Shown one piece after another: positions 41,536 through 56,685 of a DNA stretch of 64,000 bases. A program made the position numbers and the translations under genes. This DNA is from an uncultured Trueperaceae bacterium (GTDB lineage: Bacteria; Deinococcota; Deinococci; Deinococcales; Trueperaceae), in NCBI GenBank assembly GCA_963727505.1, contig CAVSGP010000009.1, positions 160,001 through 224,000 on the forward strand, written 5' to 3'. The notes under the pieces were generated by a model, which was given only the letters and a program-made list of their open reading frames with translations, did no database searches and was not told the DNA's origin. The number at the start of each line of letters is the position of its first letter. Positions within the stretch are counted from its first letter, which is position 1.

Positions 41536-41925
41536 ATGCGAGCGCACGAGTTCGGAGGGGGTTGGCTGGAGCTGACCGTCGGTCCGATGTTCGGCGGCAA
41601 GTCCGAGGAGTTGATCCGTCGGGTCAACCGGGCGCTCATCGCGCGGCAGTGCGTGCAGGTGTTCAAGCCCGCCATCGACGAGGGGCGGTTCCTCGATTCA
41701 GCTCTCGTGGCCCTGGCGCTCGAGCTCGCCGACGCGGGGACGCGGGTACTGATCGCGGGTCTCGACCTGGACTTCCGTGGTGAGCCGTTCGGCCCCATCC
41801 CGGCCCACGTCGACGACCCTTTCGTGCTGGTGGGGGCCGCCGAGCGTTACGAGCCGCGTTGCCGGGCGTGCCACACGGTGGCGCGCTCGGCCCGGCTCAT
41901 GCCACTGTTCGACCTAGCACGTTAG
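41536..41925 (+). pseudogene. tdk: Diverged thymidine kinase copy with two in-frame internal deletions (41 and 33 codons)
   Basis: Collinear with the intact tdk at 56074: 203-41-33 = 129 aa exactly; lacks the first Zn-binding Cys pair. Confidence 0.85.
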
Positions 41926-41934
41926 GTCCTCGGG

Positions 41935-44379
41935 GTGTCGACGGTGATCGAAGTGACGCTCCTGGGGGGTCCACACATTCGCGTGGACGGCCTCGAGGTG
42001 ACGCTGGGCTCGCGCAAGGCGGTCGCGCTGCTGGCCTACCTGGCTCTGAATCCCGAGGGGGCGACGCGCGAGCAGCTCGCCGAGTTGCTGTGGACGCCAG
42101 GAAAGCTGGGCAGCGTGCGCCAGGCGCTTTACGAACTGCGCAAGCTGCCGGATGCGGATGCGTGGCTCGAGGAGCGTGAGGGGCGCGTGCGCGTGCGCGC
42201 GTCCACGGATGTGGAGGCCTTCGAGGACGCCGTCGCAACGGGCGAGCACGGCGAGGCGCTGGAGTGCTGGGGTGGTCCGCTGCTCGCCGGTATCGACAAG
42301 CCCGGTGCCGGGCCGTTCCGTGAATGGCTGGCCGTGGAGCAGGCGCGCCTGGATATGGCCCGGCTCGAGGTCATGCAGCTTCGTGCCGCCGAGCTCGAGC
42401 GCGAGGGGCTAACAGCGGACGCCCTTGCCATGGTGGACGCCCTCCTTGCCGCCGATCCGCTCAACGAGACGGCCTACCGCAGCGCCATGTGGTTGCACTA
42501 CCAACTGGGACACCCCGCCGAGGCGGTGGCTGCCTTCGAGCGCTGCCGGGGGGTGCTTCGGCGCGAGCTCGACGCGGCGCCGCTGCCCGTCACCATTGAG
42601 CTGGCCGACGCCATCGGCCGCGGCTTGCCGCTCCCGGTCCACGCTGCCGTGCAGGCGCTGCCCGACCGGCTCCAACGCCTCCTCCAGGCGGTGGCGGTGG
42701 GGCGCGGGGAGCTTGGAGCGGCGGCGCTGGCGCACACCCTCGAGCGCGACCCCTACGAGGTTGCCGCCGGCCTGGTAGAGCTCGAGCGCCGGCGCCTGCT
42801 CAATGCCCACCACGGCGTGGCGCGCCACATCCTGTATGACACGGCGACCACCACGCCAGCCCCCGTGGCGCGCCTGATGCACGAGCGCATCGCACAGTGG
42901 CTCGAGGCCGACGGGGCCGGACCCGGTGCCGTGGCGCGCCACTGGCTCGGTGCCCACCGCCCGGACCGCGCCGCGCCGCTGTTGCTGGAGGCCGCGGAGG
43001 CCGCCGCCGCCGAGGGGGATCCGGGCGCTACGCTGCGGCGCTGCTACCGTGCCTTGTGGGCCGCCGAGGGCGAGCCGCGGGTGAGCCTGCGCGCCCTGTT
43101 CCTACTGGAGGGGGCCGCGGCGCAACGCCAGGAGCTCGAGACGCAAGAGGCCGCCCTCGGCGCGGCCGAGCGCATCGCCCGGAAGGGGCAGGACGACCGC
43201 GACCTGATCGAGGTGCGGTTGCGCCGGTCTCGGCAGCGACTGGCGCAGGGGCGTGTCGAGGACGGCCTGGAGCTGGCCCGGCGCGCCCTGGACGCCGCGG
43301 AACGCGTGTCCGACGCGCGCCTGATCAGTCGCGCCCGCAACGGCTTGGGCGGCGCACTGTTCTACGCAGGCCGGATGGAAGAGGCCGAGGACGCCTTCGC
43401 GTCCAACCTCGATGCCGACAACGCCACGGAGCAATTTCGCGCCCGCAACAACCTCGGCGCCATCGCGGGCATGCGCGGGGACTTCGCGCGCTCCTACCAG
43501 CACTTCGAGGTGGCGCTCACGCTGGCGCGCAGCGAGGGGCGTCGCGACGACGTCGGCGCCTGCCTCAACAATCTGGCGGCGACCGCCGAGCGCATGGCGC
43601 TCTACCGCCGCGCCGCGCAGCACCTGGAGGAGGCACGCCAGCTCGCTCGAGATCGCGGCAACCAGGCCTACGAGGCGCGGCTGCTGGCGAATCTCGCCGC
43701 GGTGTACGTCAAACAGGGGGCGCTGGGGCCGGCCTGGAACACGGCGGCGGAGGTGGAGGAGATGGCGACGGAACGCGGGGACGACCGCATGCGGGCTCAG
43801 GCGCTCGAGCTGCGCGCCGAAGTCGCCCGGCACTGCTTCGCCGACGAACGCGCCGAGGCGCTGTTCCTCGAGGCCGAGGGCATCGTGCGGGGCCTTGGGG
43901 ACGAGCGCAAGGCGCGACAGTTGGCGGGGCAGCTGGCCGTCATGAGGGAGGCGGCCGCGGCGCCCATGGAGCGCGCCGAGGACGTGCTGACGGCCATGGA
44001 GGATGCCGGCCAGCAGGACCTCGCCGCCTGGTTGTGGCTGGAGTGCTCCCTTCGGGCTCCCGATGCCGCCGACGCCGCGCGCTACGCGGAGCGTGGCGCC
44101 GCGGCTCCGGGCAACCCGCACCGGGCGAGCCTGGCCCGGGGGGCCCGCGCCTGGGCCCAGTGGCGCGCCGGTGCGGCCGGCGCCGCGGCGGAGCTGGCGC
44201 GCGCCGCCGACGCTCTCGAGTCGCTCGGGGCCGTCGAGGCGACGCTGATGTGGCGGCTGGCGGCGCGGGCGGCGTCCAGCACCGAGGACGCGGACGCCGC
44301 CCGCGAGCGCGAAGCCGCGCTCACCGCGGCCCAGGCGCCGGGGTTGCCCGCGCTCCTGCGCCGATCGCTGGCCGCTTGA
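41935..44379 (+). CDS. SARP/AfsR-like transcriptional activator: wHTH + BTAD + TPR repeats
   Basis: 'TLLGGP', 'RKAVALLAYLAL', 'REQLAELLW', 'F.EWL..E', 'DPLNETAYR..M', 'L.RELD..P', multiple TPRs ('NNLG','NNLA','NLA'). Confidence 0.85.
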   Translation: MSTVIEVTLLGGPHIRVDGLEVTLGSRKAVALLAYLALNPEGATREQLAELLWTPGKLGSVRQALYELRKLPDADAWLEEREGRVRVRASTDVEAFEDAVATGEHGEALECWGGPLLAGIDKPGAGPFREWLAVEQARLDMARLEVMQLRAAELEREGLTADALAMVDALLAADPLNETAYRSAMWLHYQLGHPAEAVAAFERCRGVLRRELDAAPLPVTIELADAIGRGLPLPVHAAVQALPDRLQRLLQAVAVGRGELGAAALAHTLERDPYEVAAGLVELERRRLLNAHHGVARHILYDTATTTPAPVARLMHERIAQWLEADGAGPGAVARHWLGAHRPDRAAPLLLEAAEAAAAEGDPGATLRRCYRALWAAEGEPRVSLRALFLLEGAAAQRQELETQEAALGAAERIARKGQDDRDLIEVRLRRSRQRLAQGRVEDGLELARRALDAAERVSDARLISRARNGLGGALFYAGRMEEAEDAFASNLDADNATEQFRARNNLGAIAGMRGDFARSYQHFEVALTLARSEGRRDDVGACLNNLAATAERMALYRRAAQHLEEARQLARDRGNQAYEARLLANLAAVYVKQGALGPAWNTAAEVEEMATERGDDRMRAQALELRAEVARHCFADERAEALFLEAEGIVRGLGDERKARQLAGQLAVMREAAAAPMERAEDVLTAMEDAGQQDLAAWLWLECSLRAPDAADAARYAERGAAAPGNPHRASLARGARAWAQWRAGAAGAAAELARAADALESLGAVEATLMWRLAARAASSTEDADAAREREAALTAAQAPGLPALLRRSLAA

Positions 44380-44407
44380 CGGGCGCTTGACGGCGCCCGA
44401 CTACGCT
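44376..44407 (+). promoter_or_regulatory. SARP-type direct-repeat promoter 1
   Basis: TTGACGG-GCGC-TTGACGG-N8-TACGCT; overlaps the regulator stop codon. Confidence 0.7.
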
Positions 44408-44429
44408 CCTAACACACCACCCCACCGCA

Positions 44430-44530
44430 CCGGCGCCGCCCGCGCCAGCCTTAGGCACCTGAGGACGAGCGAGCAACGCCACTTCGCCGATCTCGAAGGG
44501 TTGCTCGACTTCCTCCATCGCGGGGCGTCC
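44430..44530 (+). pseudogene. Relic of a small protein ('RASLRHLRTSEQRHFADLEGLLDFL') without a plausible start codon
   Basis: Protein-like motif directly downstream of promoter 1; no in-frame ATG after the -10. Confidence 0.4.
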
Positions 44531-44640
44531 CGGCGACCGCCGGCGCCTGGCCCCCCGACGCGCCCTCCCTCACGATCGATGTCGAAACCTGCGAGTCACG
44601 GGATGCCGGCGTGGCCCCCGTCCGACGCCGCGCAGCCCCA

Positions 44641-44672
44641 TTGACGGGCGCTTGACGGGCCTGCCCTAGGCT
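44641..44672 (+). promoter_or_regulatory. SARP-type direct-repeat promoter 2 (drives the 44744-54363 operon)
   Basis: TTGACGG-GCGC-TTGACGG-N8-TAGGCT. Confidence 0.75.
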
Positions 44673-44743
44673 CGCACGCAAGCACGAACGTTGCGCCAAC
44701 CTCGGCGAGCCCCGGCCGCCGAGGCTCCTGGGAGGGAGATCCG

Positions 44744-45877
44744 ATGCCCAAGCTCTACCTCGGTGAAGCCCTAGGTCTGATCGGCAAGACGCTGCCGTTC
44801 CTGTGGATCAGGCTCGGCAGTTACCTGGTCCTGGGCGTGGCCCTGGGCGTCTACTTCGGCGTGCTGGGCGGGGTCGCCTGGTTGCTCGGTCGCCTCTGGG
44901 CGCCGCTCGGCTTCCTGGTGTTCCTCATCGCCTTCGTCGGCGCCATCGGCGTGGTGCGTTGGGCCAGCCGCTACTACTTCTACCTCCTCAAGGCCGCCCA
45001 CACCGCCGTCATGACGGAGTTCATCACCCAGGGGCGGGGGCCGCAGGGCTCGCAGGTGGCCTACGGCAAGGAGCAGGTCATGACCCGCTTCCGCGACACC
45101 AGCATCCTGTTCGCCGTCGATGTGCTGGTGGACGGCATCGTCAAGGCCATCGTCCGCACCTTCACGCGCATCGCGGGGATCCTGCCGATCCCCGGCATCC
45201 AGGGGATCGGCCGCCTCATCGAGCGCGTGGCCGTGATGTCCACCACCTTCATCGACGAGGCGGTGCTGTCGCGCGCCTACAAGGAGCGCGAGCAGAACGT
45301 CTGGAAGGTCGCCCAGGACGGCGTGGTGCTCTACGCCCAGGCGTGGAAGCCGATCCTCGCCAACGCCGTGGTGCTGGCCCTGATCGGGTACGTCGAGTTC
45401 GTGCTGTTCCTGATCGTGCTGGGACTCCCGGCGGTCGCCATCGGTGCGGCCCTGCCCGGCCTGCGCCTGGCGCTGGGCATCGGCGTCATCATCGGTGCCT
45501 GGATGCTCAAGCTCGCGCTGGCCGACGCCTTCTCCCTCGCCGCCACGCTCATCGCCTACCACCGGGCCACCGAGGGGCTCGCGGTGGACGAGGAGTGGAA
45601 GGCGAAGATCGCCGGCGTCAGCAACAAGTTCCAGGAGCTCGGGCGCAAGGCGGCGGAGGCGGTCCGTGCTTCTCCCGGCGGCGCCGAGTCACAGCGCCCC
45701 GCCCCCCCGACGGGCGCGGCGACGGCCGCCGCCGGCGCGGATCCTGCGGCCCGCGGGTCCGCGAGCCCCGGCGGTGGCGCCACGGCGCTCCCCGCCGACG
45801 ACGAGCCCCGGGCGCCCTCGCCATCGCCCGCGACCGGTCCGACCGGCGCGGACCAGGGCGAAGACCGGGAGCGTTGA
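44744..45877 (+). CDS. Hypothetical multi-pass membrane protein
   Basis: RBS GGAGGGAG; about four TM helices; Ala/Pro-rich tail. Confidence 0.85.
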   Translation: MPKLYLGEALGLIGKTLPFLWIRLGSYLVLGVALGVYFGVLGGVAWLLGRLWAPLGFLVFLIAFVGAIGVVRWASRYYFYLLKAAHTAVMTEFITQGRGPQGSQVAYGKEQVMTRFRDTSILFAVDVLVDGIVKAIVRTFTRIAGILPIPGIQGIGRLIERVAVMSTTFIDEAVLSRAYKEREQNVWKVAQDGVVLYAQAWKPILANAVVLALIGYVEFVLFLIVLGLPAVAIGAALPGLRLALGIGVIIGAWMLKLALADAFSLAATLIAYHRATEGLAVDEEWKAKIAGVSNKFQELGRKAAEAVRASPGGAESQRPAPPTGAATAAAGADPAARGSASPGGGATALPADDEPRAPSPSPATGPTGADQGEDRER

Positions 45878-45880
45878 GCC

Positions 45881-46501
45881 ATGGGCAAGAAGCTCGCCAT
45901 CGGATGCCTCAGCGTCTTCGTGGTGCTGTTCCTGGCCGGCGGCATCTTCGCCTACGTGCGTTTCGTGCGCCCCGCCCAACAGGCCTTCGCCGCCGCCAAG
46001 CAGGTGGCCGCCTTCCAGTCGCTGGACCGCGACGTGCGCGAGCGCGGGGACTACCAACCCCCCGCGGACGGCGTGCTACAGGCCGACCAGGTGGAGCGCT
46101 TCGTGGCCGTCCAGTCCGCCATCTCTGGTGACCTCCAGGGACGCGTGGACGAGCTCGATCGTCGCTACAAGGCCCTCCACGACAGCGGTCGAGAGCCCGG
46201 CTTCCGGGAGCTGGCGCGCGCCTGGTCCGACGTCGCGGGCCTGCTGGTGGAGGCCAAGCGCAGCCAGGTGAGTGCCCTCAACCGCAATAGCTTCTCCCTC
46301 GCGGAGTACGCCTGGGTGCGCGGGCAAGTCCTACGGGCCGCCGGTTACGCGGTGTATCGTGTGGACCCATCGCAGCTCGCCTCGGGGCGGGGGAACGTCC
46401 CCGTCGAGGAGGCACCCGTGCCGGCCGCCAACGTGGAGCTGGTGGCCCCCCACGCCGAGGCGCTCGACGCCGCCTTCGCCCTCTCGGTCTTCGGCCTGTG
46501 A
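45881..46501 (+). CDS. Hypothetical membrane-anchored helical protein
   Basis: MGKK + single TM helix ('IGCL'); starts 3 nt after the upstream stop. Confidence 0.8.
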   Translation: MGKKLAIGCLSVFVVLFLAGGIFAYVRFVRPAQQAFAAAKQVAAFQSLDRDVRERGDYQPPADGVLQADQVERFVAVQSAISGDLQGRVDELDRRYKALHDSGREPGFRELARAWSDVAGLLVEAKRSQVSALNRNSFSLAEYAWVRGQVLRAAGYAVYRVDPSQLASGRGNVPVEEAPVPAANVELVAPHAEALDAAFALSVFGL

Positions 46502-46577
46502 CGTCCCTGGCGCCCCCGGCGCCCGCCCCCCGTTCCGGCGCCGCCGAGCGCCCGCCATCCGTTGGAGGGAGACCCCG

Positions 46578-48983
46578 ATGACACGACGCCCCCCTCGCCA
46601 TCACGTCCGTCCGGCCGCCGGCGCCGGATCGGTTCGGCGCTGGGCCCGCCTCCTCGCGGTGCTCGTGCTGCTGGTCGCCCCCACCGTGGCCACCGCGCAG
46701 GGCGACGCGTCGGGGCGTCCGGTGTGGCTGCAGGACCTGGACCGTTACGTCGCGATCGTGCGCGCAGGGGTCGACGACACCGAGCCCGGGCGCCGGTCGC
46801 TCGATGATCTGAGCCTCGAGCTGGCGATGGAGGAGCCGGATGCCATCGTCGACTGGGTGCGGAGCCACGTCGCGTACCAACCGTACGCGGGGGTGCTGCG
46901 CGGGCCCGAGGGCACCATCGTCACCGGTGCCGGCAACGCCTGGGATCAGGCCCTGCTCCTCGCCACGCTCCTCAAGGACGCGGCGTTCGACGCCCGCATC
47001 GCCTACGCACGGTTGCCCGAGGGTGCCGCGGCGCGCCTGCTGGCCGCGGTCGCGGCACCGCCGAGCGCGGCGCCCGACGTCGCCGTCCCGCTGGGAGAGC
47101 TCGGCACGGTCTTGGGCTTCGATCCGGACCAGGCCGAGGCCTGGATCGCCGAAGCCGACAGGCAGCTCGGCGAGCTGCGGGACCGGAGCGATGCCATGGC
47201 GGATAGCCTGCTCGCGGCGCTGGAGGGCGCGGGCGTCGAGATCGGCGGCGACGCGTCGGAGCGGGCCGCGCTGCTCGCCGACGCCGAGGACTACGCGTGG
47301 GTCCAGGTGCGGCTTCCGGGCGGCGACTGGCGCGACGTGCACCCCGCGTTCCCGGAGGCGCCCTCGGATCTCTCGCTCGAGCCCGCCGGCGTCCTCGAGG
47401 ACGCCGTGCCCCCCGAACACCAACACCGCCTGCGTATCGAGCTGGTGCTCGAGCAGCGCCTGGGCGACCGCCTGGAGGAGAAACCCCTGATGCAACCGTG
47501 GGAGCGCCCCACGGCCAACCTCTTCGGTCTTCCGCTCACCATTGACATCTCCGCCGACGGCATGGACGACGCCGCCTACGCCGCCGGCGACGCCCAGGCC
47601 GTGCTGGACGCCACGCACTTCTTCGCCCCCAGTTTCAACGGGGCGTTGCCCCCAGGGGGCAAGGTCTTCGACCTCGCCGGGCGGGTCGTGCCGCCCGACG
47701 CCGCCGGGAACGTCGCCGCGGCGCTCTTCCAGACCGTCTCAAACGCAGCCAACAAGGCCGCGAGCGCCCTGGGCGACCTGGGCGGCAACGACGCCGAGGA
47801 CGACGCCGGCGCGATGGCGTTGGCCTCCGTGTTCGTGCGCTACACGCTCATCCTCCCGGGCGGCGAGGAGCGCAGCGTGCGGCGCGACCTGCTCGATCGG
47901 GTGGGCGCCGCCAACCGCGCCCGCGGGAGCAGCGCGTTCGGCAACGACATGAGCGAGATCGACATGCTCGAGGCGCTACAGGGAAGCACCACGCTCATGG
48001 CCATGACCGGCTCGTTCAGCGAGGCGTACAGCCTCCGGCGCGCCCTGGACGCCACCGTGGCTGTGCGTGACGAGCTTGCCCGCATCGACGAGGCGCTGCG
48101 CTCCGACTCGTTCCGGAGCTACCGCCCCACCACGGAGCTCGCCGACGCCACGCGCCCCATGGCGCACGTGCGGCTGTTCGACCTCTTCGATGCCGGGACC
48201 GCGCCCGAGGGCGCGGTGGTCTTCCGTCCCGCACCGACGCTGGTGGCGTTCGAGCAGCACTGGCCCCAGGGTCGCGACGTGGTCGACGTGATCGCCAACC
48301 CCACGAGGGCGCTGACCATGGGCGAAGACGGCCCGGCGCCGTTGCCGCGGGAGGTCCTGCGGCGCGGTGTGTGGGAGACCCGCACCGAGGGGCTCCCGCT
48401 GGCGGGCGACGGGATCGCCCGCCACGGCGCCTTCGACAGCGTCGCGGCGGCGCTCGACGATGGCGCGACGCTCGCGGTGGTGCGCGACGCAGCGCGCCTG
48501 CCGGGCGACTGGCCCGCGCGGAGCCGGGCCGCCGCGGCGCGCGATATCGAGGCGGGGTACGTGGTGCTCTTGCCGGAGGGTCCGCCGGCCGACGGTCGGG
48601 AGCCGGCTTGGTTCCGCGTCGACCCCGGGCGCGGCGTGGCCCTGGGGCTCGCCGGCGCGGGTCGGGGGCAGGAGGCCACCGAGTACCTGGTGACCGAGAC
48701 GCTCAGCTTCTTCAACGACTACGCGGGCATCGCCCTGATGGTCCGCGACCTCCACGCCTGCGACGCGAAGCCGAAGCTGAGCGAGAGGGTGTGCTGCCTG
48801 ATGGAGGTCTACGTCAACAACGTGATCGTGGGGATGCCCCTCGGGGCGGCCGTCGGCGGCGCCTTCGGCGTGGCCGGCAGCACCATGCTGACGGCCATGA
48901 GCGCGGCCAACGCGGTCCCGAACTTCGCGGCGAACATGGGCGTCTGCGAGGTCATCGACCCAACGAATCTCGATGACCTGTGA
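46578..48983 (+). CDS. Exported ~800-aa protein with a degenerate transglutaminase-like region and a Cys-rich hydrophobic C-terminus
   Basis: Signal peptide ending ATA-Q; 'WVRSHVAYQPYAGVLRGPEGT...GNAWDQALLLATLL', 'DYAWVQV'; RBS GGAGG. Confidence 0.75.
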   Translation: MTRRPPRHHVRPAAGAGSVRRWARLLAVLVLLVAPTVATAQGDASGRPVWLQDLDRYVAIVRAGVDDTEPGRRSLDDLSLELAMEEPDAIVDWVRSHVAYQPYAGVLRGPEGTIVTGAGNAWDQALLLATLLKDAAFDARIAYARLPEGAAARLLAAVAAPPSAAPDVAVPLGELGTVLGFDPDQAEAWIAEADRQLGELRDRSDAMADSLLAALEGAGVEIGGDASERAALLADAEDYAWVQVRLPGGDWRDVHPAFPEAPSDLSLEPAGVLEDAVPPEHQHRLRIELVLEQRLGDRLEEKPLMQPWERPTANLFGLPLTIDISADGMDDAAYAAGDAQAVLDATHFFAPSFNGALPPGGKVFDLAGRVVPPDAAGNVAAALFQTVSNAANKAASALGDLGGNDAEDDAGAMALASVFVRYTLILPGGEERSVRRDLLDRVGAANRARGSSAFGNDMSEIDMLEALQGSTTLMAMTGSFSEAYSLRRALDATVAVRDELARIDEALRSDSFRSYRPTTELADATRPMAHVRLFDLFDAGTAPEGAVVFRPAPTLVAFEQHWPQGRDVVDVIANPTRALTMGEDGPAPLPREVLRRGVWETRTEGLPLAGDGIARHGAFDSVAAALDDGATLAVVRDAARLPGDWPARSRAAAARDIEAGYVVLLPEGPPADGREPAWFRVDPGRGVALGLAGAGRGQEATEYLVTETLSFFNDYAGIALMVRDLHACDAKPKLSERVCCLMEVYVNNVIVGMPLGAAVGGAFGVAGSTMLTAMSAANAVPNFAANMGVCEVIDPTNLDDL

Positions 48984-48996
48984 GGGTAGGGGCGCC

Positions 48997-51900
48997 ATGA
49001 CCAAGGGCCTCCCGCAACACCAGACGGGTCGCCGATCCGGCACCCACGATGGCGGGGCCGGGCGCGCGCGGGAGACGTTCGGCTTCGCCCGCTGGTTGCT
49101 CGTGCTGATCGTCGGCGTGACGATGGGCGCGGCGTACGCCCAGGACTGCACGCTCGAGACCGAGCCCAACGACGTGCCGGCCGACGCCGACACGCTCGAG
49201 GGGCACGCCTGCCTGGTGGGCGAGATGGCGGGGCAGGACCAGGATGCCTACCTCTGGACCGTGACCGAGGAGGACGCCGCCACGCCCTGGGTCGTCGAGA
49301 CCGAGGGGATCGCGGGTCAGGTAACCAAGGTCGACCTGTTGCGCGTGGCCTTCGCCGACAACGGTCGCGACGTGACCGGCGTCGAGACCCTCGGCAGCTT
49401 CGGAACGAGTGACGGCAGCCTGCAGGCCGGCCCCCCGTTCCTGATCGCTCCCGGGCGCTACGTCCTGGGCGTCTCCAAGAGCGGGGGCGAGGGTCAGTAC
49501 GTCGTCCACCTGCGGCCGGGGGAGGAGCTGCGGCGCGGCCGCCGCCCGGGCCAGGGGGCCGGCCCGGCGGAGAACGCGTTCGCGCACTTTGGCGTGCTGG
49601 ACGGGGAGCTCGAGCTGGATTGGACGGTGGCGGCCGACGGCCCACCGAGCCGCTGGGACATCGAGCTGCGTACGGCCCTGGGCGAAGCGGCGACGCTGGT
49701 GCTGAGCGCGCCGGACGGCGCCACCGTGGCGGAGGCCTCTGCGGACGCGTTGGGCCGGGCAGCACTCCGGTCGCTGGGGCCCGGGGCCGGCGACTACCGC
49801 ATCGTCGTGCGCGGCGCCTCCGGCGGCGCGCCCTACACGCTGGCCGCCGTGCCGACGGGCGTGCTCACCGACGGCGACGAGGTGGAGCCCAACGACGACT
49901 GGAGCCAGGCCAACGTGCTGACCCTGGACCGTCCGATGCACGCCGCCGGCCCGGGCTCGGACACCTTCGTCCTCGACGTGCCGCCCGAGCGGCTCGGGCA
50001 GACCTTCGACCTGAACGTCGGCGGCCAGGCGAACCTCGATGTCCGCCTGTTCGACGCCGATCGGCGCCCCCTGCAGGAGCGCCGCGGGACCTCGGGCGCG
50101 TTGCGCGGCCTGGTGCTGGATCAGGGGCGCTACTTCGTCACGGTGCGGGCACCGGACGACGGGGGTTACACCCTCTCCTTCGCGGGCGCGGCCCCCCCCG
50201 AGGAGGGCAGCGAGAGCGAACCCAACGACGCGCTCGTGGCGGCCGATCCGCTCTCGGACGCGCGGACCGTGCGCGGCGAGTTGCAGCCCCAGGACAAGGA
50301 TGTCTACCGCTTCACCGTCGGCGCACCCACGCAGCTCTGGCGCATCCAGGCGGTGGGTCCGGGCGTGCGCACGCTCGCCACCTACGACGCCGGGGGCGCG
50401 CGCCAGGCGTCGCAGCGCGGTGAAGGGCGCATCCGACTGGACAACCTGGTGCTGCTGCCGGGGGAGCACTACATCGAGGTCACCGGCGACGAGGGGCGCT
50501 ACGCGCTGCGCGCGCTGCCGATCGGGCCCGTGCCGGAGGCCGATCGGGCCGCGGCTGCGCCGCCGCTCGACGACGAGCCAGCGCTCGAGCCGGCGGCCGC
50601 GGCGCCGCCATCCGAGCCCGAGGCCATCGAGCCCGCGGGTCCGCCACCGCCCCCCGGGCTGTCCGAGCTCGAGCCCAACGACGATGAGAGCCGCGCCGAG
50701 CTCTTGGAGTCCTCGGTCGTGCGCGTCGGAGCGCTCCCCGGCCAGGACGACGTCGACATGTACCGCTTCTACCTGGCCAGCGACCAGTACCTGCGTATCG
50801 AGGCGGTACCGCCCGCCGACGGCAGCGTCTTCTTCGACGTGCCTGAGGTGGGCATCCGGGCGCAGCCCGGCGCGCTCGGCGAGAGCGCCGTGCTCGAACG
50901 CCGTTTTCTCGCGGGCAACTACTTCCTGCGTCTGCGCCCGGACATCGCGTCGGACGGGTACTACCAGCTGCGCATGACGCAGCTCGACCCCCTGGCGCTG
51001 CCCGCGGACGCCGAGCCCAACGACGACGTCGCCACGGCCAACCGCCTGCCCGCGGACCTGGTCGTTCCCGGTCGCGTAGGCGAGATCAACGGCGACGACT
51101 TCTACACCCTCCCCACCTTTGCCACCGCCACGACGCTGCATGTCGAGCTCGAGAACGACGATGCGGGGGTGCGGCTCGCGCTGCTGGGCGAGGGTGCGCC
51201 GCGTCTCGACGGGGGCGAGCCGGGCGCCTTCGATGCCGAGCTTCCGGCGGACACCCCGCTGGCGCTGCGCGTGTCGGGGCGCGGTCGCTACCGCATGACA
51301 CTCGCGTTCGGGGCTGAGGTCGACCCCTCCCAGCTCCGGCCGCCGGAAGGCGACACCCGCACCAGTGCCAGCTTCGCGCAGCCCGACTCCCGCGTGGCCG
51401 CGTACTGGCACGAGGGCCAGGTGTGGACCGGCGAGCTCACCCTGGAGAACGGGGCGGACCGCGCGCAGAGCTACGCGCTCCAGGCCGCGTCCAGCAATGT
51501 GGACTTCATCCCCGAGGTGCCGGCCACGTTCGATCTCGGCCCCGGCGAGCGCGGCAGCGTACCGGTGACGGTGCGCATCGCGCCCGACGCCCGCGACGAC
51601 CAGCCGGTACGCATCACCGTGGGCGCGCGAAGTGAGATCGGCTTGGTGACGGCCGCGGCACGGATCGCTCCCGCCTGCGAGGCGCCGCCGGTGGCGCCTC
51701 GCCCGTCGTGGGCGCTGCCGGAGCCGCTGCTCGGACGCCTGGACGTGGCCTGGACGGGGTTGGGTGCGTCCGTGGTGGACGACTCCGGCCGCGACGCCGA
51801 GCTCTTCGACGGGCGCACCTCCCCGGCGACCGGCGTGCACCACGCCGTGGGGGAGTCCGTGACGATCGACCTCGCGGGGGACGAGCCGATCCTCCTGGCA

Positions 51901-54363
51901 GGTACCACCCTTCACCCCCAGGCGGGCTCGGCCGTCCGGCGCCAGCTCCGCGACTTCCGGGTCCTCGTCTCACTCGACGGCTCGAGCTTCACGCCCGTTC
52001 TCGAGGGGCGTCTGTCCGCCGCCCGCGTCGAGCAGGCGTTCGTGTTCGAGGAGCCGGTGCCGGCGCGTTACGCGCGCCTCGAGTACGGTGCCGACCAGGG
52101 TGGCCGCACCGATGGTTCCCTGGGGGAGTGGAAGCTCATCGCGGCCGAGGACGCGCCGCTGCCGGCCGCCAACCTCGCCGATCCCGCCCTTGGCGGCCAC
52201 GTGGTGTGGTCGGACCCGTTGGTGCCGCAGGCGCGCGGCCACGCCAGCCTTCTCGACGAGGAGGCCAACCGCCCCAGCGTCGACGGGCGCGGCGTCGACG
52301 CGGCCGTGTGGGTGGTGGGCTTCCAGCACGACCGCGCCGGCCAGGTCGCGCGCCTCGAGTGGGCGGAGTCGCCCGACAGCCGGCCCGAAGGACAGTTCCA
52401 GGACGTGGTGGTGGAGGCAAGCCTCACCTCCCCGGTGGGCCCGTGGCGCCCGCTCGCCTCCTGGGAGTTGCAGCGGGATGCTGCGGGAGTCGCCGTCCTG
52501 AGCCTCGACGAGCCCATCTGGGCCCGGTACCTGCGGTTCACCGCCCGCGGCCAGCAGGAGGGTGCGCGCACGCTCTTCCCGCCCGACACGCTGCGGGTGA
52601 TCGAGCGCGCGGCGGGGGACGGCTACCGCTCCATCCTCGGCGAGTGGGGGCAGTACCGGCGGGAGGCGGCCTACGAGTGGACGCGCGACCGCGCCCCCGC
52701 CGCCGCCGTGACCGAGGCCGATGACAACGACACGCGGGAGGCGGCCCAACCCCTCGCCACGGGCGAGGTCGCGGAGGGCACGGTGGCGGTCGCCGAGGAC
52801 GTGGACTGGTACCGCGTGACGGTGCCAGACGGGCAGAACCACCTTGAGCTGCGGCTCGAAGGCGACCCCACCATCGCCTACATCTACGACCTGACCGACG
52901 CGGACGGTGCACCGGTGCCGTACGAGGAGTCGGCGGACGGCGACGCCGTGGTGCTACGCGCCTTCGTCGAGCCGGGCACGTACGACCTCCGGCTGTCCGA
53001 ACCCAAGCGCTCGGTGATCTTCGCCTGGGACACGAGCGGAAGCGTGGGGCCGTACACGCCCATCACCTACGCCTCGCTGGCGCGCTTCGCCCGCGACCTG
53101 GACCCGGAGCGGGAGTACGTGCAGCTCCTGGCCTTCAACGACCCGGCGCCGATCTGGTTGCTGCCCTACTGGAGCGCCGATCCCACCCGCGCGCAGCAGG
53201 CGATCAACGACTTCGATCGCGACGCCGATTCGAGCAACTCCGAGCTCGCCCTCCTCACCGCCAGCCGGGCGCTGTCCCAGCGCGAGGGCACGCGCGCCGT
53301 GCTGTTCATGACCGATGCGGAGTCCCCGGGCTACGCGCTGACGCCCGCGCTGTGGCGCAGCCTGGAGCAGACGCGGCCGCGCGTATTCACCTTCGAGATC
53401 AGCACCTCCGGCTCGGACTACTCGCAGGACCTGATGCAGTCCTGGGCCGACGTGAACCACGGCTTCTACGACTACGCCCGCAACGTGGGCGATTTCGACG
53501 TCGGCTTCGCGCGGGCGAGCTGCCTGCTCCGGCGCCCCAAGCGCTACCGCGTCGAGGTCACCACCAGTGCCGAGACGCCGCCCGGGCCCGGGAAGATCCG
53601 CGTGGTCGCGGGAGCGGGCGCGACGCTGCCGGCCGTAGAGGTCATCCTCGACGCCTCGGGCTCGATGGGGAAGAAGCTCCCCGACGGCACCTCGCGGATC
53701 GACGCGGCGCGCGGTGTGCTGAGAGACTTCGTGTCGGAGGTGGTGCCCGAGGGCACGCCCTTCGCGCTGCGGGCCTTCGGGCACATCAAGCCGTCGTCGT
53801 GCGAGACCCGGCTGGAGATGCCGCTCGCGCCCCTCGACGCCGGGGCCGCCTCCGACGTGATCGATGCCATCGAACCCAAGCTGCTATCGCAAACGCCGCT
53901 GGCGGACTCCATCGCCGCCGTGGCCGAGGACCTCGAGGGCGCGCCAGCGGGCGGCACGCTGCTGCTGCTCACCGACGGCGAGGAGTCCTGCGGGGGCGAC
54001 CCTGCGGCGGCGCTGGTCGCGCTTCGAGACGCGGGCGTCGACGTTCGGCTCGCCATCGTGTCCCTGGGTCTGGAGGAGGATGCCGCGAGGGGCCGCTTCG
54101 GCGCCCTCGCCGAGGCGGCCGGGGGCAGCTACGTCGACGTCACCGGTGTGGATGCGCTGCGCGCATCCGTGACGGAGGCGGCGCACCCGGCCTTCGACGT
54201 CCTCTCGGCCGACGGGGCGGTCGTCGCGTCGGGCCGCGTCGGGGGGGACGCCGTCGAGGTGCCGGCGGGCGTCTACCGTGTGGTGGTCGGCGGCGCGCCC
54301 GCGTTCGAGGACGTGCGCGTCGGGGGGGACGCGTCCGTCGAGCTCGAGCTCGCCGCCCGTTGA
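48997..54363 (+). CDS. Giant exported protein: EPND/PPC-like repeats, discoidin-like region, two VWA domains
   Basis: Signal peptide ending AYA-Q; five EPND motifs plus one EADDND; MIDAS motifs 'DTSGS...TD' and 'DASGS...TDGEESCGGDP'. Confidence 0.85.
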   Translation: MTKGLPQHQTGRRSGTHDGGAGRARETFGFARWLLVLIVGVTMGAAYAQDCTLETEPNDVPADADTLEGHACLVGEMAGQDQDAYLWTVTEEDAATPWVVETEGIAGQVTKVDLLRVAFADNGRDVTGVETLGSFGTSDGSLQAGPPFLIAPGRYVLGVSKSGGEGQYVVHLRPGEELRRGRRPGQGAGPAENAFAHFGVLDGELELDWTVAADGPPSRWDIELRTALGEAATLVLSAPDGATVAEASADALGRAALRSLGPGAGDYRIVVRGASGGAPYTLAAVPTGVLTDGDEVEPNDDWSQANVLTLDRPMHAAGPGSDTFVLDVPPERLGQTFDLNVGGQANLDVRLFDADRRPLQERRGTSGALRGLVLDQGRYFVTVRAPDDGGYTLSFAGAAPPEEGSESEPNDALVAADPLSDARTVRGELQPQDKDVYRFTVGAPTQLWRIQAVGPGVRTLATYDAGGARQASQRGEGRIRLDNLVLLPGEHYIEVTGDEGRYALRALPIGPVPEADRAAAAPPLDDEPALEPAAAAPPSEPEAIEPAGPPPPPGLSELEPNDDESRAELLESSVVRVGALPGQDDVDMYRFYLASDQYLRIEAVPPADGSVFFDVPEVGIRAQPGALGESAVLERRFLAGNYFLRLRPDIASDGYYQLRMTQLDPLALPADAEPNDDVATANRLPADLVVPGRVGEINGDDFYTLPTFATATTLHVELENDDAGVRLALLGEGAPRLDGGEPGAFDAELPADTPLALRVSGRGRYRMTLAFGAEVDPSQLRPPEGDTRTSASFAQPDSRVAAYWHEGQVWTGELTLENGADRAQSYALQAASSNVDFIPEVPATFDLGPGERGSVPVTVRIAPDARDDQPVRITVGARSEIGLVTAAARIAPACEAPPVAPRPSWALPEPLLGRLDVAWTGLGASVVDDSGRDAELFDGRTSPATGVHHAVGESVTIDLAGDEPILLAGTTLHPQAGSAVRRQLRDFRVLVSLDGSSFTPVLEGRLSAARVEQAFVFEEPVPARYARLEYGADQGGRTDGSLGEWKLIAAEDAPLPAANLADPALGGHVVWSDPLVPQARGHASLLDEEANRPSVDGRGVDAAVWVVGFQHDRAGQVARLEWAESPDSRPEGQFQDVVVEASLTSPVGPWRPLASWELQRDAAGVAVLSLDEPIWARYLRFTARGQQEGARTLFPPDTLRVIERAAGDGYRSILGEWGQYRREAAYEWTRDRAPAAAVTEADDNDTREAAQPLATGEVAEGTVAVAEDVDWYRVTVPDGQNHLELRLEGDPTIAYIYDLTDADGAPVPYEESADGDAVVLRAFVEPGTYDLRLSEPKRSVIFAWDTSGSVGPYTPITYASLARFARDLDPEREYVQLLAFNDPAPIWLLPYWSADPTRAQQAINDFDRDADSSNSELALLTASRALSQREGTRAVLFMTDAESPGYALTPALWRSLEQTRPRVFTFEISTSGSDYSQDLMQSWADVNHGFYDYARNVGDFDVGFARASCLLRRPKRYRVEVTTSAETPPGPGKIRVVAGAGATLPAVEVILDASGSMGKKLPDGTSRIDAARGVLRDFVSEVVPEGTPFALRAFGHIKPSSCETRLEMPLAPLDAGAASDVIDAIEPKLLSQTPLADSIAAVAEDLEGAPAGGTLLLLTDGEESCGGDPAAALVALRDAGVDVRLAIVSLGLEEDAARGRFGALAEAAGGSYVDVTGVDALRASVTEAAHPAFDVLSADGAVVASGRVGGDAVEVPAGVYRVVVGGAPAFEDVRVGGDASVELELAAR

Positions 54364-54366
54364 CAG

Positions 54367-54398
54367 CCCCGCGGGCCGGCCACGGCCGGCCCGCGGGG
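54367..54398. terminator. GC-rich hairpin between convergent genes
   Basis: CCCCGCGGGCCGGCC-ac-GGCCGGCCCGCGGGG; no U-tract. Confidence 0.55.
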
Positions 54399-54426
54399 GG
54401 CGTTCGGACTCGTACGCGTTTCGGGG

Positions 54427-55101
54427 CTAGAACTCCGTGCGGATGGCCCCCACCACCTGATCCACGGCCGCGTTGGAGGCCTCGGCCAGCAGCGGGCCTA
54501 CCTCCGGATCGTCGTAGGCGATGCGGCCGGTGGGGATGCGGTTCACCGCTACGTTGGGGTTGGAGGCGTCGCCGGCGCCGGTCATCGACACCACCACCTC
54601 GCCGGTGATGATGTCCGTGGCGCGCACGTCCACCTCGACCTGGGCCGTGGTGGAGCCCAGCGTCACGCCCAGAAGGCTGACCGTGGGCTTCGCGATGGTG
54701 GCGCGCGTGACCACCCCGGTCACCACGTAGCCGGCGCCGGCGGCCTCCGCAAGCGCCACGGGGTCGAGGGACTCTAGCCCCTGTTGCGCGATCAGATCCT
54801 GCAGCTCGCTGCGCTCGACGATGGTGTAGCAGCCCGAGGCCTTCATGCGGGTGATGAGCCGCGCCGTCGCGGCCGACTCCACCCCGGTCACCGTGGTGCC
54901 GTACTGGGAGGTGGTGTTGTCGAACTCGAAGATCGCCACCACGGGGATCTCGCTGCTGGCGCAGGCCTCCGGACCGGCGTCCTCGACGGCTGCGGCGTCC
55001 TCAGCCTCCGTGGACGGCGCCTCCGTGGCGGTGGGCGCGCAGGCGGCGAGGAGCACGACCAACAGGGGTATCACGGTCAGTGCTATACGGCGTGGCATCA
55101 T
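54427..55101 (-). CDS. CsgG/HfaB-family lipoprotein
   Basis: Lipobox LAAC; 'VAIFEFDN', 'TIVERSELQDLIAQQ', 'AGYVVTGVVT', 'VDVRATDIITGEVV'; RBS AAGGAG. Confidence 0.75.
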   Translation of the reverse strand: MMPRRIALTVIPLLVVLLAACAPTATEAPSTEAEDAAAVEDAGPEACASSEIPVVAIFEFDNTTSQYGTTVTGVESAATARLITRMKASGCYTIVERSELQDLIAQQGLESLDPVALAEAAGAGYVVTGVVTRATIAKPTVSLLGVTLGSTTAQVEVDVRATDIITGEVVVSMTGAGDASNPNVAVNRIPTGRIAYDDPEVGPLLAEASNAAVDQVVGAIRTEF

Positions 55102-55122
55102 GGCTCTCCTTTCGGCGACCGT

Positions 55123-55154
55123 AGCCTACATGTGGGTCGTCAACGCCCCGTCAA
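55123..55154 (-). promoter_or_regulatory. SARP-type direct-repeat promoter 3 (CsgG-like gene)
   Basis: Minus strand TTGACGG-GGCG-TTGACGA-N8-TAGGCT. Confidence 0.75.
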
Positions 55155-55219
55155 AGTGCCCGGGAACGCGGCCGTCAGCGGACGGACAGCGGCCTGCGGG
55201 CCAGCACCCCCACGTTGCC

Positions 55220-56032
55220 GCGCGCTCTGGTAGCGGATCTCGTACGCCCCGGGATCCGTGGGTACGTCGATGGTGAGCGGCCACCCCGCCGAGGTGTAGG
55301 TGTACGTTCCGGACGCCCCCTCGGACGCCTCGCCCGGCACGATGATCACGTAGTCTTTCGGGCCGTTCGGGCCGGTCCAGACGACGTGGAAGACGCTGCC
55401 GACGAAGACGGCGTCGTCGATGACCTTCAGCGTGGCCGGGTTGGGGGTGACGGTCAGGGTGCGGCGGGCCGCGACGGTGCCGGCGCTCAGGTAGCGCAGT
55501 TCGAGCGTGCCGGCGTCCAGTGGGGCGACGGCGCCGAGATGCTCGACGCCCTCCACGTAGCCGATGAAATGCCCTCGGGCGTGGTCCAGGACACCGGGTT
55601 GCGCCGTGACGACGACGTCGCCGGCCACGGGCTCACCCTTCCACGTCACCGCGTACTCGGCGTTGACGAAGGTCGCCGGGCCGGAGAGGTGTTGGCCGCT
55701 TTGGGGGCGAGATCGAACCCGATGACGCGCAGCTCGACGGCGGGCTGCATCGCCCCGAGTTTCGCCAGCGCGGCCGTCAGGTCGCCACCGCAGGACTCCT
55801 CCCCGTCGGTGACGAGGACGATCATGCGCTGTCCCGACCCGGCGCTGAAGTCGCCGACCGCGGCCAGCAGAGAGCCGACGATCGGCGTCGCTCCCCTGGC
55901 CTTGACGGTGCCTACGCTGGTCTGCAGGCTTGCCTCGTCCACACCCGAAAGCGGCACGAAGAGCTTCGTCTCGTCGCACGCGCCGGGTGCCAGGGTGTCC
56001 ACGGTGGAGCCGTAGATTCTCAGGCCGACGTC
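55220..56032 (-). pseudogene. 5'-truncated, frameshifted VWA + Ig-like domain gene
   Basis: 'DVGLRIYG...C...GATPI...IVLVTDGEESCGGD' in one frame and 'WTGPNGPKDYV...PGAYEIRY' in another; shift near 55685. Confidence 0.75.
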
Positions 56033-56073: not shown

Positions 56074-56685
56074 ATGCTAGCGCACGCCTTTGGTGGAGGC
56101 TGGATCGAGCTGATCGTCGGCCCCATGTTCAGCGGTAAGTCCGAGGAGCTCATCCGGCGCGTCAACCGCGCGCTCATCGCCAGGCAACGGGTCCAGGTGT
56201 TCAAGCCCGCGATCGACGATCGTTACGTGCCGGAGGCGGTTGCCTCGCACGACGGTCGCTCCCTGAAGGCGATCCCGGTCGACGACACCGCCGGCGTCCG
56301 GCATTTGCTCGCCGACGAGACGCAGGTGGTGGCGGTGGACGAGGGCCAGTTCTTCGACGACGCGCTGGTGGGGCTGGCGCTCGAGCTCGCCGATGCCGGC
56401 AAGCGCGTCATCGTGGCCGGGCTCGACCTCGACTTCCGGGCAGAGCCGTTCGGCCCCATGCCTACCCTGCTGGCGCAGGCCGAGGTGGTGGAGAAGCTGA
56501 CGGCGATCTGCTCGTGCGGACGCGCCGCGACGCGCACGCAGCGTCTCATCGGCGGGCGCCCGGCCCACTACGACGATCCGGTCATCCTGGTGGGGGCGTC
56601 GGAGCGATACGAACCGCGCTGCCGCAGCTGCCACGTCGTTCTCAAGGAAGCGCGCGACACCCCGCTGTTCGACCTGGCATCGTAG
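56074..56685 (+). CDS. tdk: Thymidine kinase
   Basis: 'GPMFSGKS', 'FKP.ID.RY', 'DEGQF', 'GLDLDFR.EPF', 'AICSCG', 'YEPRCRSC'. Confidence 0.97.

Follow-up and report, generated by a model that had tools for sequence, protein, structure and literature searches.

To our knowledge, SARP activators are known almost exclusively from actinomycete antibiotic clusters. AfsR and the Streptomyces SARPs combine an N-terminal winged helix-turn-helix (wHTH) domain and a BTAD with C-terminal TPRs, and afsS, a target of AfsR, adjoins afsR. According to one account, the direct repeats bound by AfsR at afsS end 8 nt short of the −10 element, on its upstream side, and the spacer there is 20 bp (PMC11301090); another describes SARP sites as heptameric repeats in 11-bp units overlapping the −35 element (PMC10972967).

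The envelope proteins considered here recall further systems, among them the CsgG/HfaB lipoproteins with their curlin, CsgF or holdfast partners, and the ring-forming outer-membrane lipoproteins of the PelC/FlgT/TolB-N type. Bat/TgpA-type sets combine a MoxR ATPase, DUF58, VWA, TPR and transglutaminase-like membrane proteins.

The locus described here belongs to an uncultured member of the Trueperaceae and lies in a 64,000-nucleotide stretch of DNA, which was analysed as a whole and is called the window (Table 1). An earlier note on this DNA had read positions 41935-55154 as a SARP-like regulator followed by envelope genes matching no nameable system. Pfam and the sequence itself confirmed all six genes, with the domains and coordinates claimed for them; no description of this regulon was found in the literature, and no characterised system was matched.

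Table 1. Features of the regulator locus (positions in the window)
Feature	Position	Strand	Description
REG	41935..44379	+	814-aa SARP-type activator; wHTH + BTAD, then C-terminal TPRs
Box P1	44376..44407	+	TTGACGG-N4-TTGACGG-N8-TACGCT; overlaps REG stop codon
Decayed P1 unit	44424..44640	+	what is left of SP, a small conserved ORF, and of a ~150-aa lipoprotein gene
Box P2	44641..44672	+	TTGACGG-N4-TTGACGG-N8-TAGGCT; MEM1 start codon 71 nt further on
MEM1	44744..45877	+	377 aa, inner membrane; uncharacterised family with CysZ-like predicted fold
MEM2	45881..46501	+	206 aa; single N-terminal membrane anchor, invariant C-terminal GL
TGL	46578..48983	+	801-aa membrane-anchored transglutaminase-like protein without catalytic Cys
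Giant VWA protein	48973..54363	+	1796 aa, secreted; signal anchor, PPC-like modules, discoidin (F5/8C), PPC, two VWA
CsgG-family lipoprotein	54427..55101	-	short, 224 aa; PF03783, lipobox LLAAC
Box P3	55123..55154	-	TTGACGG-N4-TTGACGA-N8-TAGGCT; lipoprotein start codon 21 nt further on
Truncated remnant	55140..55979	-	second VWA-plus-repeat protein gene; stop codon overlaps box P3

The regulator and the promoter box

The SARP-like character claimed for REG was borne out by two lines of evidence: Pfam places BTAD (PF03704) at residues 88-227 with 70.1 bits (cut-off 22.1; E 3.4e-19), and the SARP domain of AfsR (DBD plus BTAD, 8hvr_I residues 50-282) aligns to residues 10-227 with E 1.3e-6. REG thus has the two defining elements of a SARP, an OmpR-type winged-helix DNA-binding domain and a BTAD after it, and TPR_12/TPR_1 were also matched; Trans_reg_C gave no Pfam match at E ≤ 0.01. 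The central NB-ARC/P-loop ATPase that defines large, AfsR-type SARPs was not detected, as Pfam found no AAA, NB-ARC or P-loop ATPase between the BTAD and the TPRs at E ≤ 0.01, whereas the Chloroflexota counterpart of REG (locus L084) retains an NB-ARC ATPase. No hydrophobic segment was found in REG. Its host is a member of the Deinococcota and that of AfsR an actinomycete, and its predicted targets are envelope and surface proteins, in contrast to the biosynthetic genes targeted by Streptomyces SARPs.

Each box consists of a heptamer, 4 nt, a second heptamer, 8 nt and a −10-like hexamer, TAnnnT, which is separated by 20 nt from the upstream TTGACG. All three copies thereby follow the rule for SARP target promoters (heptamer repeats in 11-bp units, 8 bp from the −10 element), and the geometry is that of AfsR at afsS, with the same 11-bp register, the proximal heptamer 8 bp and the upstream repeat 20 bp from the −10 element; the repeat sequence, TTGACGG, is unlike that of Streptomyces SARP sites. 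In a plain sigma-70 scan the box sites did not register as canonical promoters. OmpR/PhoB-type response regulators likewise use tandem 11-bp repeats, so a protein other than REG could bind the box.

The promoter motif proposed to be common to the operon and the lipoprotein gene proved genuine, well above chance expectation and confined to this locus. Its exact form, TTGACG-N5-TTGACG, matches three times in the 3,261,185-base genome, always in the cluster (44376+, 44641+ and 55154-); with one mismatch allowed, three matches appear outside the cluster, compared with four for a reversed control pattern in the same genome. The copy at the REG stop codon, P1, had been overlooked in the earlier note. 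When the −10 hexamer was included, the pattern was found 3 times in genome G000, 2 in G003, 8 in G019, 2 in G020 and 5 in G017, and 4, 5, 6, 4 and 2 times in G041-G045, respectively; the reversed control gave no match in any of these ten genomes.

Gene order and distribution among relatives

Judged by gene spacing alone, MEM1, MEM2, TGL and the giant VWA gene likely form a four-gene operon: MEM1 and MEM2 are 3 nt apart, MEM2 and TGL 76 nt apart, and TGL and the VWA gene overlap by 11 nt. The lipoprotein gene is convergent to the operon and has its own box. Alignment of the P1 unit with G019 (locus L014) reveals three deletions that removed the N-terminal half of SP and most of the lipoprotein gene, and part of the system has therefore been lost in this genome. 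The SP family shares the motif RYLLRVWR..W.ASLRDV..G...F..L..L..YL in alignment, and in relatives this box-driven small ORF lies directly downstream of REG, in parallel to afsR-afsS. At the other end of the cluster, the remnant ORF has no Pfam family; VWA-like similarity extends beyond its start to 56035 (tblastn), and an intact version of the gene is present in G019 (L014 808-2781). A core of 10.8 kb seems to have been traded recently with a different genus.

Across 24 genomes of the family, the box was present in all ten with a REG orthologue (E ≤ 1e-40) versus two of the fourteen without one (G004 and G013). Neither box nor REG was found at the thresholds used in G015, G016 and G021, in which MEM1 or TGL is present. 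The overlap of the REG stop codon with a box recurs in G019, G003, G008, G017, G024 and L094-L097. In Trueperaceae relatives the cluster genes are shuffled or lie on separate contigs, each unit with its own box. Homologues thus co-occur across the Trueperaceae and the box is retained, in support of the earlier note.

The most widespread arrangement is a minimal BOX-MEM2-MEM1-CsgG unit from which TGL and VWA are absent. Four of five genomes with this minimal locus carry REG-BOX-SP on a separate contig, and in all four loci examined from such genomes TGL is a solitary gene behind a box. Two genomes (L105 and L113) likewise have the giant VWA gene on its own with a box. MEM1 and MEM2 are absent from some clusters (G003 and G008). 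Among TGL-anchored loci, VWA and other cluster genes are found in variable order in 8/15, and boxes in 8/15. Further box-driven genes encode large exported lipoproteins with fn3/Big_5, PMP-repeat, papain-like or PD40 domains. The description of the cluster as a self-contained module consequently finds only partial support: membership varies, parts are scattered over up to four separate loci in other genomes, and additional lipoproteins belong to the regulon. This fluid membership fits a surface-protein regulon better than one fixed machine. Within the family the distribution of the cluster is patchy.

Observations counted against the regulon account include the occurrence of MEM1 without REG outside the family, the family genomes that lack box or REG, and the decay of the P1 unit.

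Envelope products and competing explanations

Every cluster product except REG carries membrane or export signals, as had been claimed. MEM1 (hydrophobic segments 19-76, 119-139 and 202-266) and MEM2 match no family in Pfam or NCBIfam at E ≤ 0.01, which includes the CysZ/EI24 type for MEM1. With homologues in 577 representative clusters at E ≤ 1e-3, MEM1 is a member of a family that extends beyond this cluster; MEM2 adjoins it in 35/59 loci anchored on MEM1, and of the 18 Trueperaceae-like loci whose flanks are long, 16 show this pairing. MEM1 without REG occurs in Salinivenus and in four of the five Chloroflexota genomes examined. The MEM1 structure model (pLDDT 88) aligns with the CysZ sulfate permease 3tx3_B over 219 of 226 CysZ residues (Z 13.4, rmsd 4.7, 10% identity), a score that helical folds can reach by arrangement alone; the next unrelated structure follows at Z 7.1 (VIA-align 2), and CysZ is also the top Foldseek match, though with E 0.2.

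This resemblance invites an account of the genes as an envelope-stress or ion-homeostasis regulon, in which MEM1 would act as a channel or permease like CysZ, the integrity of the envelope under salt, desiccation or oxidative stress would be supported by the lipoprotein, MEM2 and TGL, and the VWA protein would play an accessory part. In its favour, the structural matches of MEM1 are only to CysZ and choline-transporter-like proteins, the minimal unit built on MEM1 is the commonest, and some MEM1 family members bear cytoplasmic FHA or zinc-ribbon domains suggestive of signalling. The neighbour of MEM1 in Trueperaceae encodes a Clp-type ATPase, and in Salinivenus MEM1 directly follows ClpB ahead of peroxiredoxins, but the Clp/thymidine kinase neighbourhood may be plain synteny. 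Given further that the fold match comes without a sequence-family match, and that transport leaves the adhesin-like lipoproteins and the giant binding-module protein unexplained, we regard this account as unlikely.

The lipoprotein matches the Pfam CsgG family (PF03783) with 63.3 bits (cut-off 20.8; E 2.6e-17), over 191 of 210 profile positions, carries its lipobox at residues 17-21, and has relatives publicly annotated as "CsgG/HfaB family". It could accordingly build a pore in the outer membrane through which a substrate that forms polymers or serves as an anchor is exported, in the manner of curli or holdfast secretion. Like CsgG/HfaB, it is a lipoprotein with an alpha/beta fold, and its model (pLDDT 77.5) aligns with CsgG at Z 12.5 over 149 residues with 22% identity; PelC (Z 13.6; rmsd 2.1 over 127 residues) and LPHT/FlgT (Z 13.0) nevertheless score no worse (VIA-align 2). 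The mature form is about 60 residues shorter than CsgG, its folded part comprises only ~175 residues, and the model takes 179-190 residues to cover what CsgG covers in 204-222. The loops at the positions of the CsgG hairpins look short in the model, at ~13 (138-150) and ~11 (182-192) residues. No curlin, CsgF or holdfast partner was found for the lipoprotein: Curlin_rpt (PF07012) and CsgF (PF10614) have no match in the genome (97.4% complete; E. coli control positive), which extends genome-wide the earlier remark that neither is nearby, and the cluster contains no amyloid-like repeat protein. A curli-like exporter is thus improbable, and the original curli/holdfast analogy, despite the family match, is weak. 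Proteins of the PelC/FlgT/TolB-N type, small and without long membrane hairpins, which the lipoprotein also seems to lack, give the best structural scores, although no sequence-family match joins them and the cluster has no Pel or flagellar genes.

TGL matches Transglut_core (PF01841) with 29.7 bits against a cut-off of 23 and has hydrophobic segments at 22-44 and 749-767. The pseudo-enzyme reading extends to the homologues, 21/21 of which have Ala or Ser in place of the catalytic Cys (motif GN[AS][LWF]DQ), and the catalytic His position is mostly Tyr. In the giant protein, Pfam matched PPC, F5/8C and the two VWA_2 stretches expected from the earlier description, with MIDAS sequences DTSGS at 1353 and DASGS at 1560; the DxSGS of both VWA domains is kept in 20/20 homologues. 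ExxPND-type motifs occur at residues 62, 303, 414, 565 and 1248. Bat/MoxR-VWA-transglutaminase (TgpA-type) sets likewise bring VWA-domain and TPR proteins together with transglutaminase-like membrane proteins; unlike those, the cluster pairs a secreted multi-module VWA protein with a Cys-less core, and no MoxR AAA+ ATPase or DUF58 was found by Pfam in the six proteins or the scanned flanking ORFs. A conflict or defence module, in which the VWA, transglutaminase-like and STAND-derived TPR parts would detect competitors or invaders and set off a response in the envelope, is very improbable: such parts recur in conflict systems catalogued in PMC7159879, the REG counterpart in Chloroflexota has its ATPase, and the cluster is patchy and apparently recently exchanged, but Pfam found no MoxR ATPase, effector nuclease, peptidase or toxin domain in the cluster, TGL lacks its catalytic Cys, and the VWA protein is an exported one that has binding modules instead of cytoplasmic effector domains.

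A probable SARP-switched envelope regulon

The specificity of the box, its conservation with REG and the envelope-type targets argue for a real activator-plus-regulon for envelope proteins, and on this sequence evidence the regulon and its SARP-type control are very probably genuine. That the activator gene commands its own small regulon whose envelope products act together is, as an overall account, the explanation we favour with some reserve. Because they share the rare double TTGACG box, the genes are likely switched on together, remodelling the cell surface.

We propose that REG is the box-binding protein and that its TPR part receives the inducing signal. A REG dimer would likely sit on the two TTGACGG heptamers in their 11-bp spacing, with 8 bp between the proximal one and the TAnnnT downstream, and would in consequence recruit RNA polymerase to promoters without usable −35 spacing, like AfsR at afsS. 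The products may then cooperate in the envelope, with MEM1 (four predicted membrane helices in a CysZ-like fold) and MEM2 in the inner membrane, TGL as a non-catalytic anchor or scaffold, and the lipoprotein as a ring or scaffold attached to the outer membrane. Surface-exposed ligand-binding cargo is the role predicted for the giant protein, with its two metal-binding VWA domains, PPC and discoidin modules. Domain content makes a function in inducible surface adhesion or display a serious possibility, though short of an even chance. More tentative still is the specific proposal of an undescribed SARP-switched surface-display system, in which MEM1, its bitopic partner MEM2 and a short ring-forming lipoprotein would provide a new path for giant VWA adhesins and large lipoproteins to the outer face of the Deinococcota envelope, with TGL as the anchor.

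Trueperaceae inhabit saline and extreme habitats, and their outer envelope biology is largely unstudied. In this phylum, Deinococcota, SARP promoter geometry would mark a compact envelope-protein regulon that can be predicted genome-wide; the prediction specifies a single protein, a box of 28 bp and between two and eight promoters in each genome. The regulon also links families of no known function: MEM1, MEM2, SP and the short CsgG clade.

A shared promoter box and its probable SARP-type regulator

The pattern TTGACGG-N4-TTGACG(G/A)-N8-TA(G/C)GCT occurs at three sites: across the stop codon of the gene for REG, a SARP-type regulator (box P1), before the gene for the membrane protein MEM1 (P2), and before the gene for a short CsgG-family lipoprotein (P3). 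The claim of an earlier note that the operon and the lipoprotein gene have a common promoter motif is thereby upheld. Close homologues carry public names that assign the window to Trueperaceae (Deinococcota). In the genome, which comprises 3.26 Mb in 15 contigs (G+C of the window 0.68–0.75), the exact double hexamer has three copies, all in the cluster; three one-mismatch matches were found elsewhere versus four for a reversed control pattern, which is no excess. Gaps of 9 and 20 nt separate the TTGACG copies from the −10-like hexamer, neither spacing being usable, and a plain sigma-70 scan found no promoter at the box sites. The boxes share the layout of SARP targets as described in two papers, in which heptamer repeats in 11-bp units overlap the −35 element (PMC10972967) and the AfsR site at afsS lies 8 nt upstream of the −10, within a promoter having a 20-bp spacer (PMC11301090).

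REG resembles SARPs in promoter layout and also in its DNA-binding module, with the SARP domain of AfsR (8hvr_I) aligning to residues 10–227 (E 1.3e-6). It differs from large SARPs in missing their ATPase feature, as no NB-ARC/P-loop part was detected in REG by Pfam scan, and it lies outside the usual SARP taxon and target class. By hydropathy scan, REG has no hydrophobic segment, whereas MEM1, MEM2, TGL, the giant protein, and the lipoprotein have at least one apiece. From MEM1 to the gene for the giant VWA protein, neighbouring genes are separated first by 3 nt and then by 76 nt, and the last pair overlaps by 11 nt, which suggests a single operon. A look-up of RNA runs covering 44300–47300 listed none.

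Features of the cluster and its surroundings, in window coordinates
Feature	Position	Strand	Description
Left flank		− (both)	DUF2254 gene and Clp-type AAA gene
Degraded thymidine kinase (TK) copy	41536–41919		Beside REG; about 50% aa identity, internal deletions
REG	41935–44379	+	814 aa; BTAD and TPRs (translation, family scans)
Region behind box P1	44424–44640		Three deletions relative to G019
Block shared with G019	44605–55380		10.8 kb; box P2 to just beyond the lipoprotein gene
MEM1	44744–45877	+	377 aa; membrane protein without family match
MEM2	45881–46501	+	206 aa; membrane protein without family match
TGL	46578–48983	+	801 aa from internal Met; transglutaminase-like, Transglut_core weak, above threshold
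Giant protein	48973–54363	+	1796 aa; PPC, F5/8C, two VWA stretches
CsgG-family lipoprotein	54427–55101	−	224 aa; convergent with operon
Truncated ORF	55140–55979	−	279 aa
Intact TK	56074–56685		Far end of cluster
Right flank			The intact TK and an Asp/Asn-tRNA synthetase gene

Across the family sample, boxes were found in 10 of 10 genomes with REG (called at E ≤ 1e-40) versus 2 of 14 without it, a co-occurrence that constitutes a pattern rather than a statistical test since these genomes are kin. The full box pattern gave 2–8 matches per genome, and the reversed control none, in all 10 genomes scanned. Five genomes run counter to a strict rule: boxes are present and REG was not detected in G004 and G013; in G015, G016, and G021, TGL or MEM1 is present with box and REG both absent at the thresholds used. 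A sister-family genome of the same order (G028, genus g20) encodes a full-length REG-like protein of 31% identity and has six box-pattern matches, but two control matches as well, making its signal less clean.

Conservation, dispersal, and probable replacement of the gene set

The search for co-occurring homologues proposed in the earlier note was run from two anchors, and homologues do co-occur across Trueperaceae. Among the other family genomes, 10 of 24 yielded a TGL homologue, against none of 16 genomes from four sister families. Around 15 TGL matches, with up to 20 kb fetched for each, the giant VWA gene is present in eight loci; most of these eight also contain REG and the CsgG-like gene, sometimes with MEM1/MEM2, and the genes vary in order and orientation. 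TGL stands by itself in six loci, and one locus ends at a contig edge. Boxes occur in eight of the 15, each directly upstream of a cluster gene, the G017 locus having five. An isolated TGL (L015, G020:C1:485463-487844) is 76–78% identical to that of the window and has no box or cluster genes nearby; the in-cluster TGL of the same genome is only about 34–36% identical, and several genomes have 2–4 TGL paralogues.

Anchoring the scan on MEM1 yielded 59 loci on named public contigs, for the most part those of Trueperaceae MAGs. Of these, 18 are Trueperaceae-like and extend 7 kb or more to either side; in this subset, MEM2 was found in at least 16, the box in 12, VWA in 11, TGL and REG in 10 each, and the CsgG-like gene in nine, all being lower bounds because the 10-kb flank is too short to span the full cluster. 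A minimal form, BOX-MEM2-MEM1-CsgG adjoining a thymidine kinase gene, recurs; among five such genomes examined, four have a REG orthologue on a different contig, with a box and then SP, a small conserved ORF, behind it, and an isolated TGL with its own box was present in all four loci fetched. The giant VWA gene is isolated behind a box in two genomes. Chance adjacency of the cluster genes was rejected because the box accompanies them even when dispersed.

Beyond the family, MEM1 is found unaccompanied by REG in Salinivenus and the majority of the Chloroflexota genomes examined. The Salinivenus (Rhodothermota) homologues (L080, L081, L076, L083; 55–59% identity) immediately follow clpB and precede peroxiredoxin genes; none of the other cluster genes is nearby. 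They possibly reflect cross-phylum transfer among halophiles. In an Aggregatilineales MAG (Chloroflexota; L084, 6633–11026), a full SARP-NB-ARC-TPR regulator is divergent from an SP-like ORF followed by a MEM1 homologue, with an AAACG-N6-AAACG repeat upstream. Of 60 further genomes of this order searched, four encode MEM1, and REG and SP are absent from its vicinity in each (7.8–10 kb fetched, about 3–6 kb per side). As this core was seen in one Aggregatilineales locus only, and is missing from Salinivenus as well, the idea of REG-SP-MEM1 as an ancient cross-phylum triad was dropped.

The block from box P2 to just beyond the lipoprotein gene has 95.7% DNA identity to a genome of another genus (G019, locus L014), versus 88% for REG and 74–82% for the flanks, and MEM1 was found in none of nine congeners of the window's genome. 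The cluster lies between two TK copies that share one orientation, and the degraded one sits at the ancestral TK place, where TK lies in relatives. Together, these observations point to recent replacement of the operon through recombination with a G019-like donor.

SP (60–75 aa, motif RYLLRVWR...W.ASLRDV.DG...F..L..L..YL) directly follows REG in many relatives. Compared with G019, the window has lost the first half of SP and most of the next lipoprotein gene through three deletions, so that box P1 heads a dead unit. A Pfam search with SP and the G019 P1 lipoprotein gave no meaningful match, and SP falls into unnamed ESM Atlas clusters only. The 279-aa ORF represents the tail, truncated here, of a second VWA-plus-repeat protein, which is full-length in G019 and in L074 also occurs close to the cluster. 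The ORF ends in a stop codon that overlaps box P3, paralleling the REG stop codon and box P1. Elsewhere (G019, G041–G044), boxes precede large lipoproteins containing fn3 and Big_5 domains, PMP repeats, fn3 with a papain-like region, or PD40 repeats, as well as a second SP copy; two of the examined boxes have no clear downstream gene.

Predicted products and candidate function

The MEM1 model is confident (pLDDT 88; >90 in nearly all blocks up to residue 310). Only CysZ (Z 13.4 over 219 aligned residues) and a pair of choline-transporter-like proteins stand out among its fold matches, with 7.1 for the one ranked after them; between helical proteins, Z values at this level suggest a shared fold without proving it. 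Foldseek returned no match at E ≤ 0.001, and MEM1 falls into unnamed ESM Atlas clusters, where a search with MEM1 and SP gave a weak DUF6159 lead (0.82). Within the family (577 representative clusters), distant members (P0170, P0178, P0211, P0229, P0157, P0249) carry an N-terminal FHA domain or, at one end or the other, zinc ribbons. These domains place the ends of MEM1-family proteins in the cytoplasm. An uncontrolled complex prediction for MEM1 (1–312) with MEM2 scored 0.06 against a mark of 0.32. A role in stress or transport, with MEM1 at its centre, is considered unlikely.

The CsgG-like lipoprotein belongs to a tight clade (210–228 aa) that sources name CsgG/HfaB. Its model (pLDDT 77.5 overall, high in the folded part, residues 50–224) gave GNA1162, CT253, and pre-pore CsgG as top Foldseek matches. 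With VIA-align 2, PelC (Z 13.6, rmsd 2.1, 127 residues), LPHT/FlgT (Z 13.0), and CsgG (Z 12.5, 149 residues, 22% identity) are tied within 1–2 Z units. A true CsgG-type secretion system is considered improbable; the model has short loops at the positions of both CsgG membrane hairpins, and PelC and FlgT score equally. A ring or scaffold type would fit no less well than a pore. A conflict module is rated lower still. TGL lacks the catalytic Cys in 21 of 21 aligned homologues and found no PDB sequence match at E ≤ 1, and the DxSGS motifs of both VWA domains of the giant protein are kept in 20 of 20 homologues.

The preferred reading is a regulated surface system. The TPR part of REG would receive a signal; judging from geometry, homology, and the REG-box association, REG would then bind the two heptamers and recruit RNA polymerase. 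From their export signals, the products are predicted to be sent to the envelope, where they may build or remodel a surface feature, with the giant VWA protein as the ligand-binding part, a role proposed because of domain content and the adhesin-like character of the other box-driven genes. Literature searches found no paper describing this gene set, and the earlier statement that the cluster matches no nameable system stands, the structural genes having no described counterpart in the literature searched. We rate the regulator and regulon as an activator with a cluster-situated regulon, itself a known kind of arrangement, that would govern several families of unknown function.
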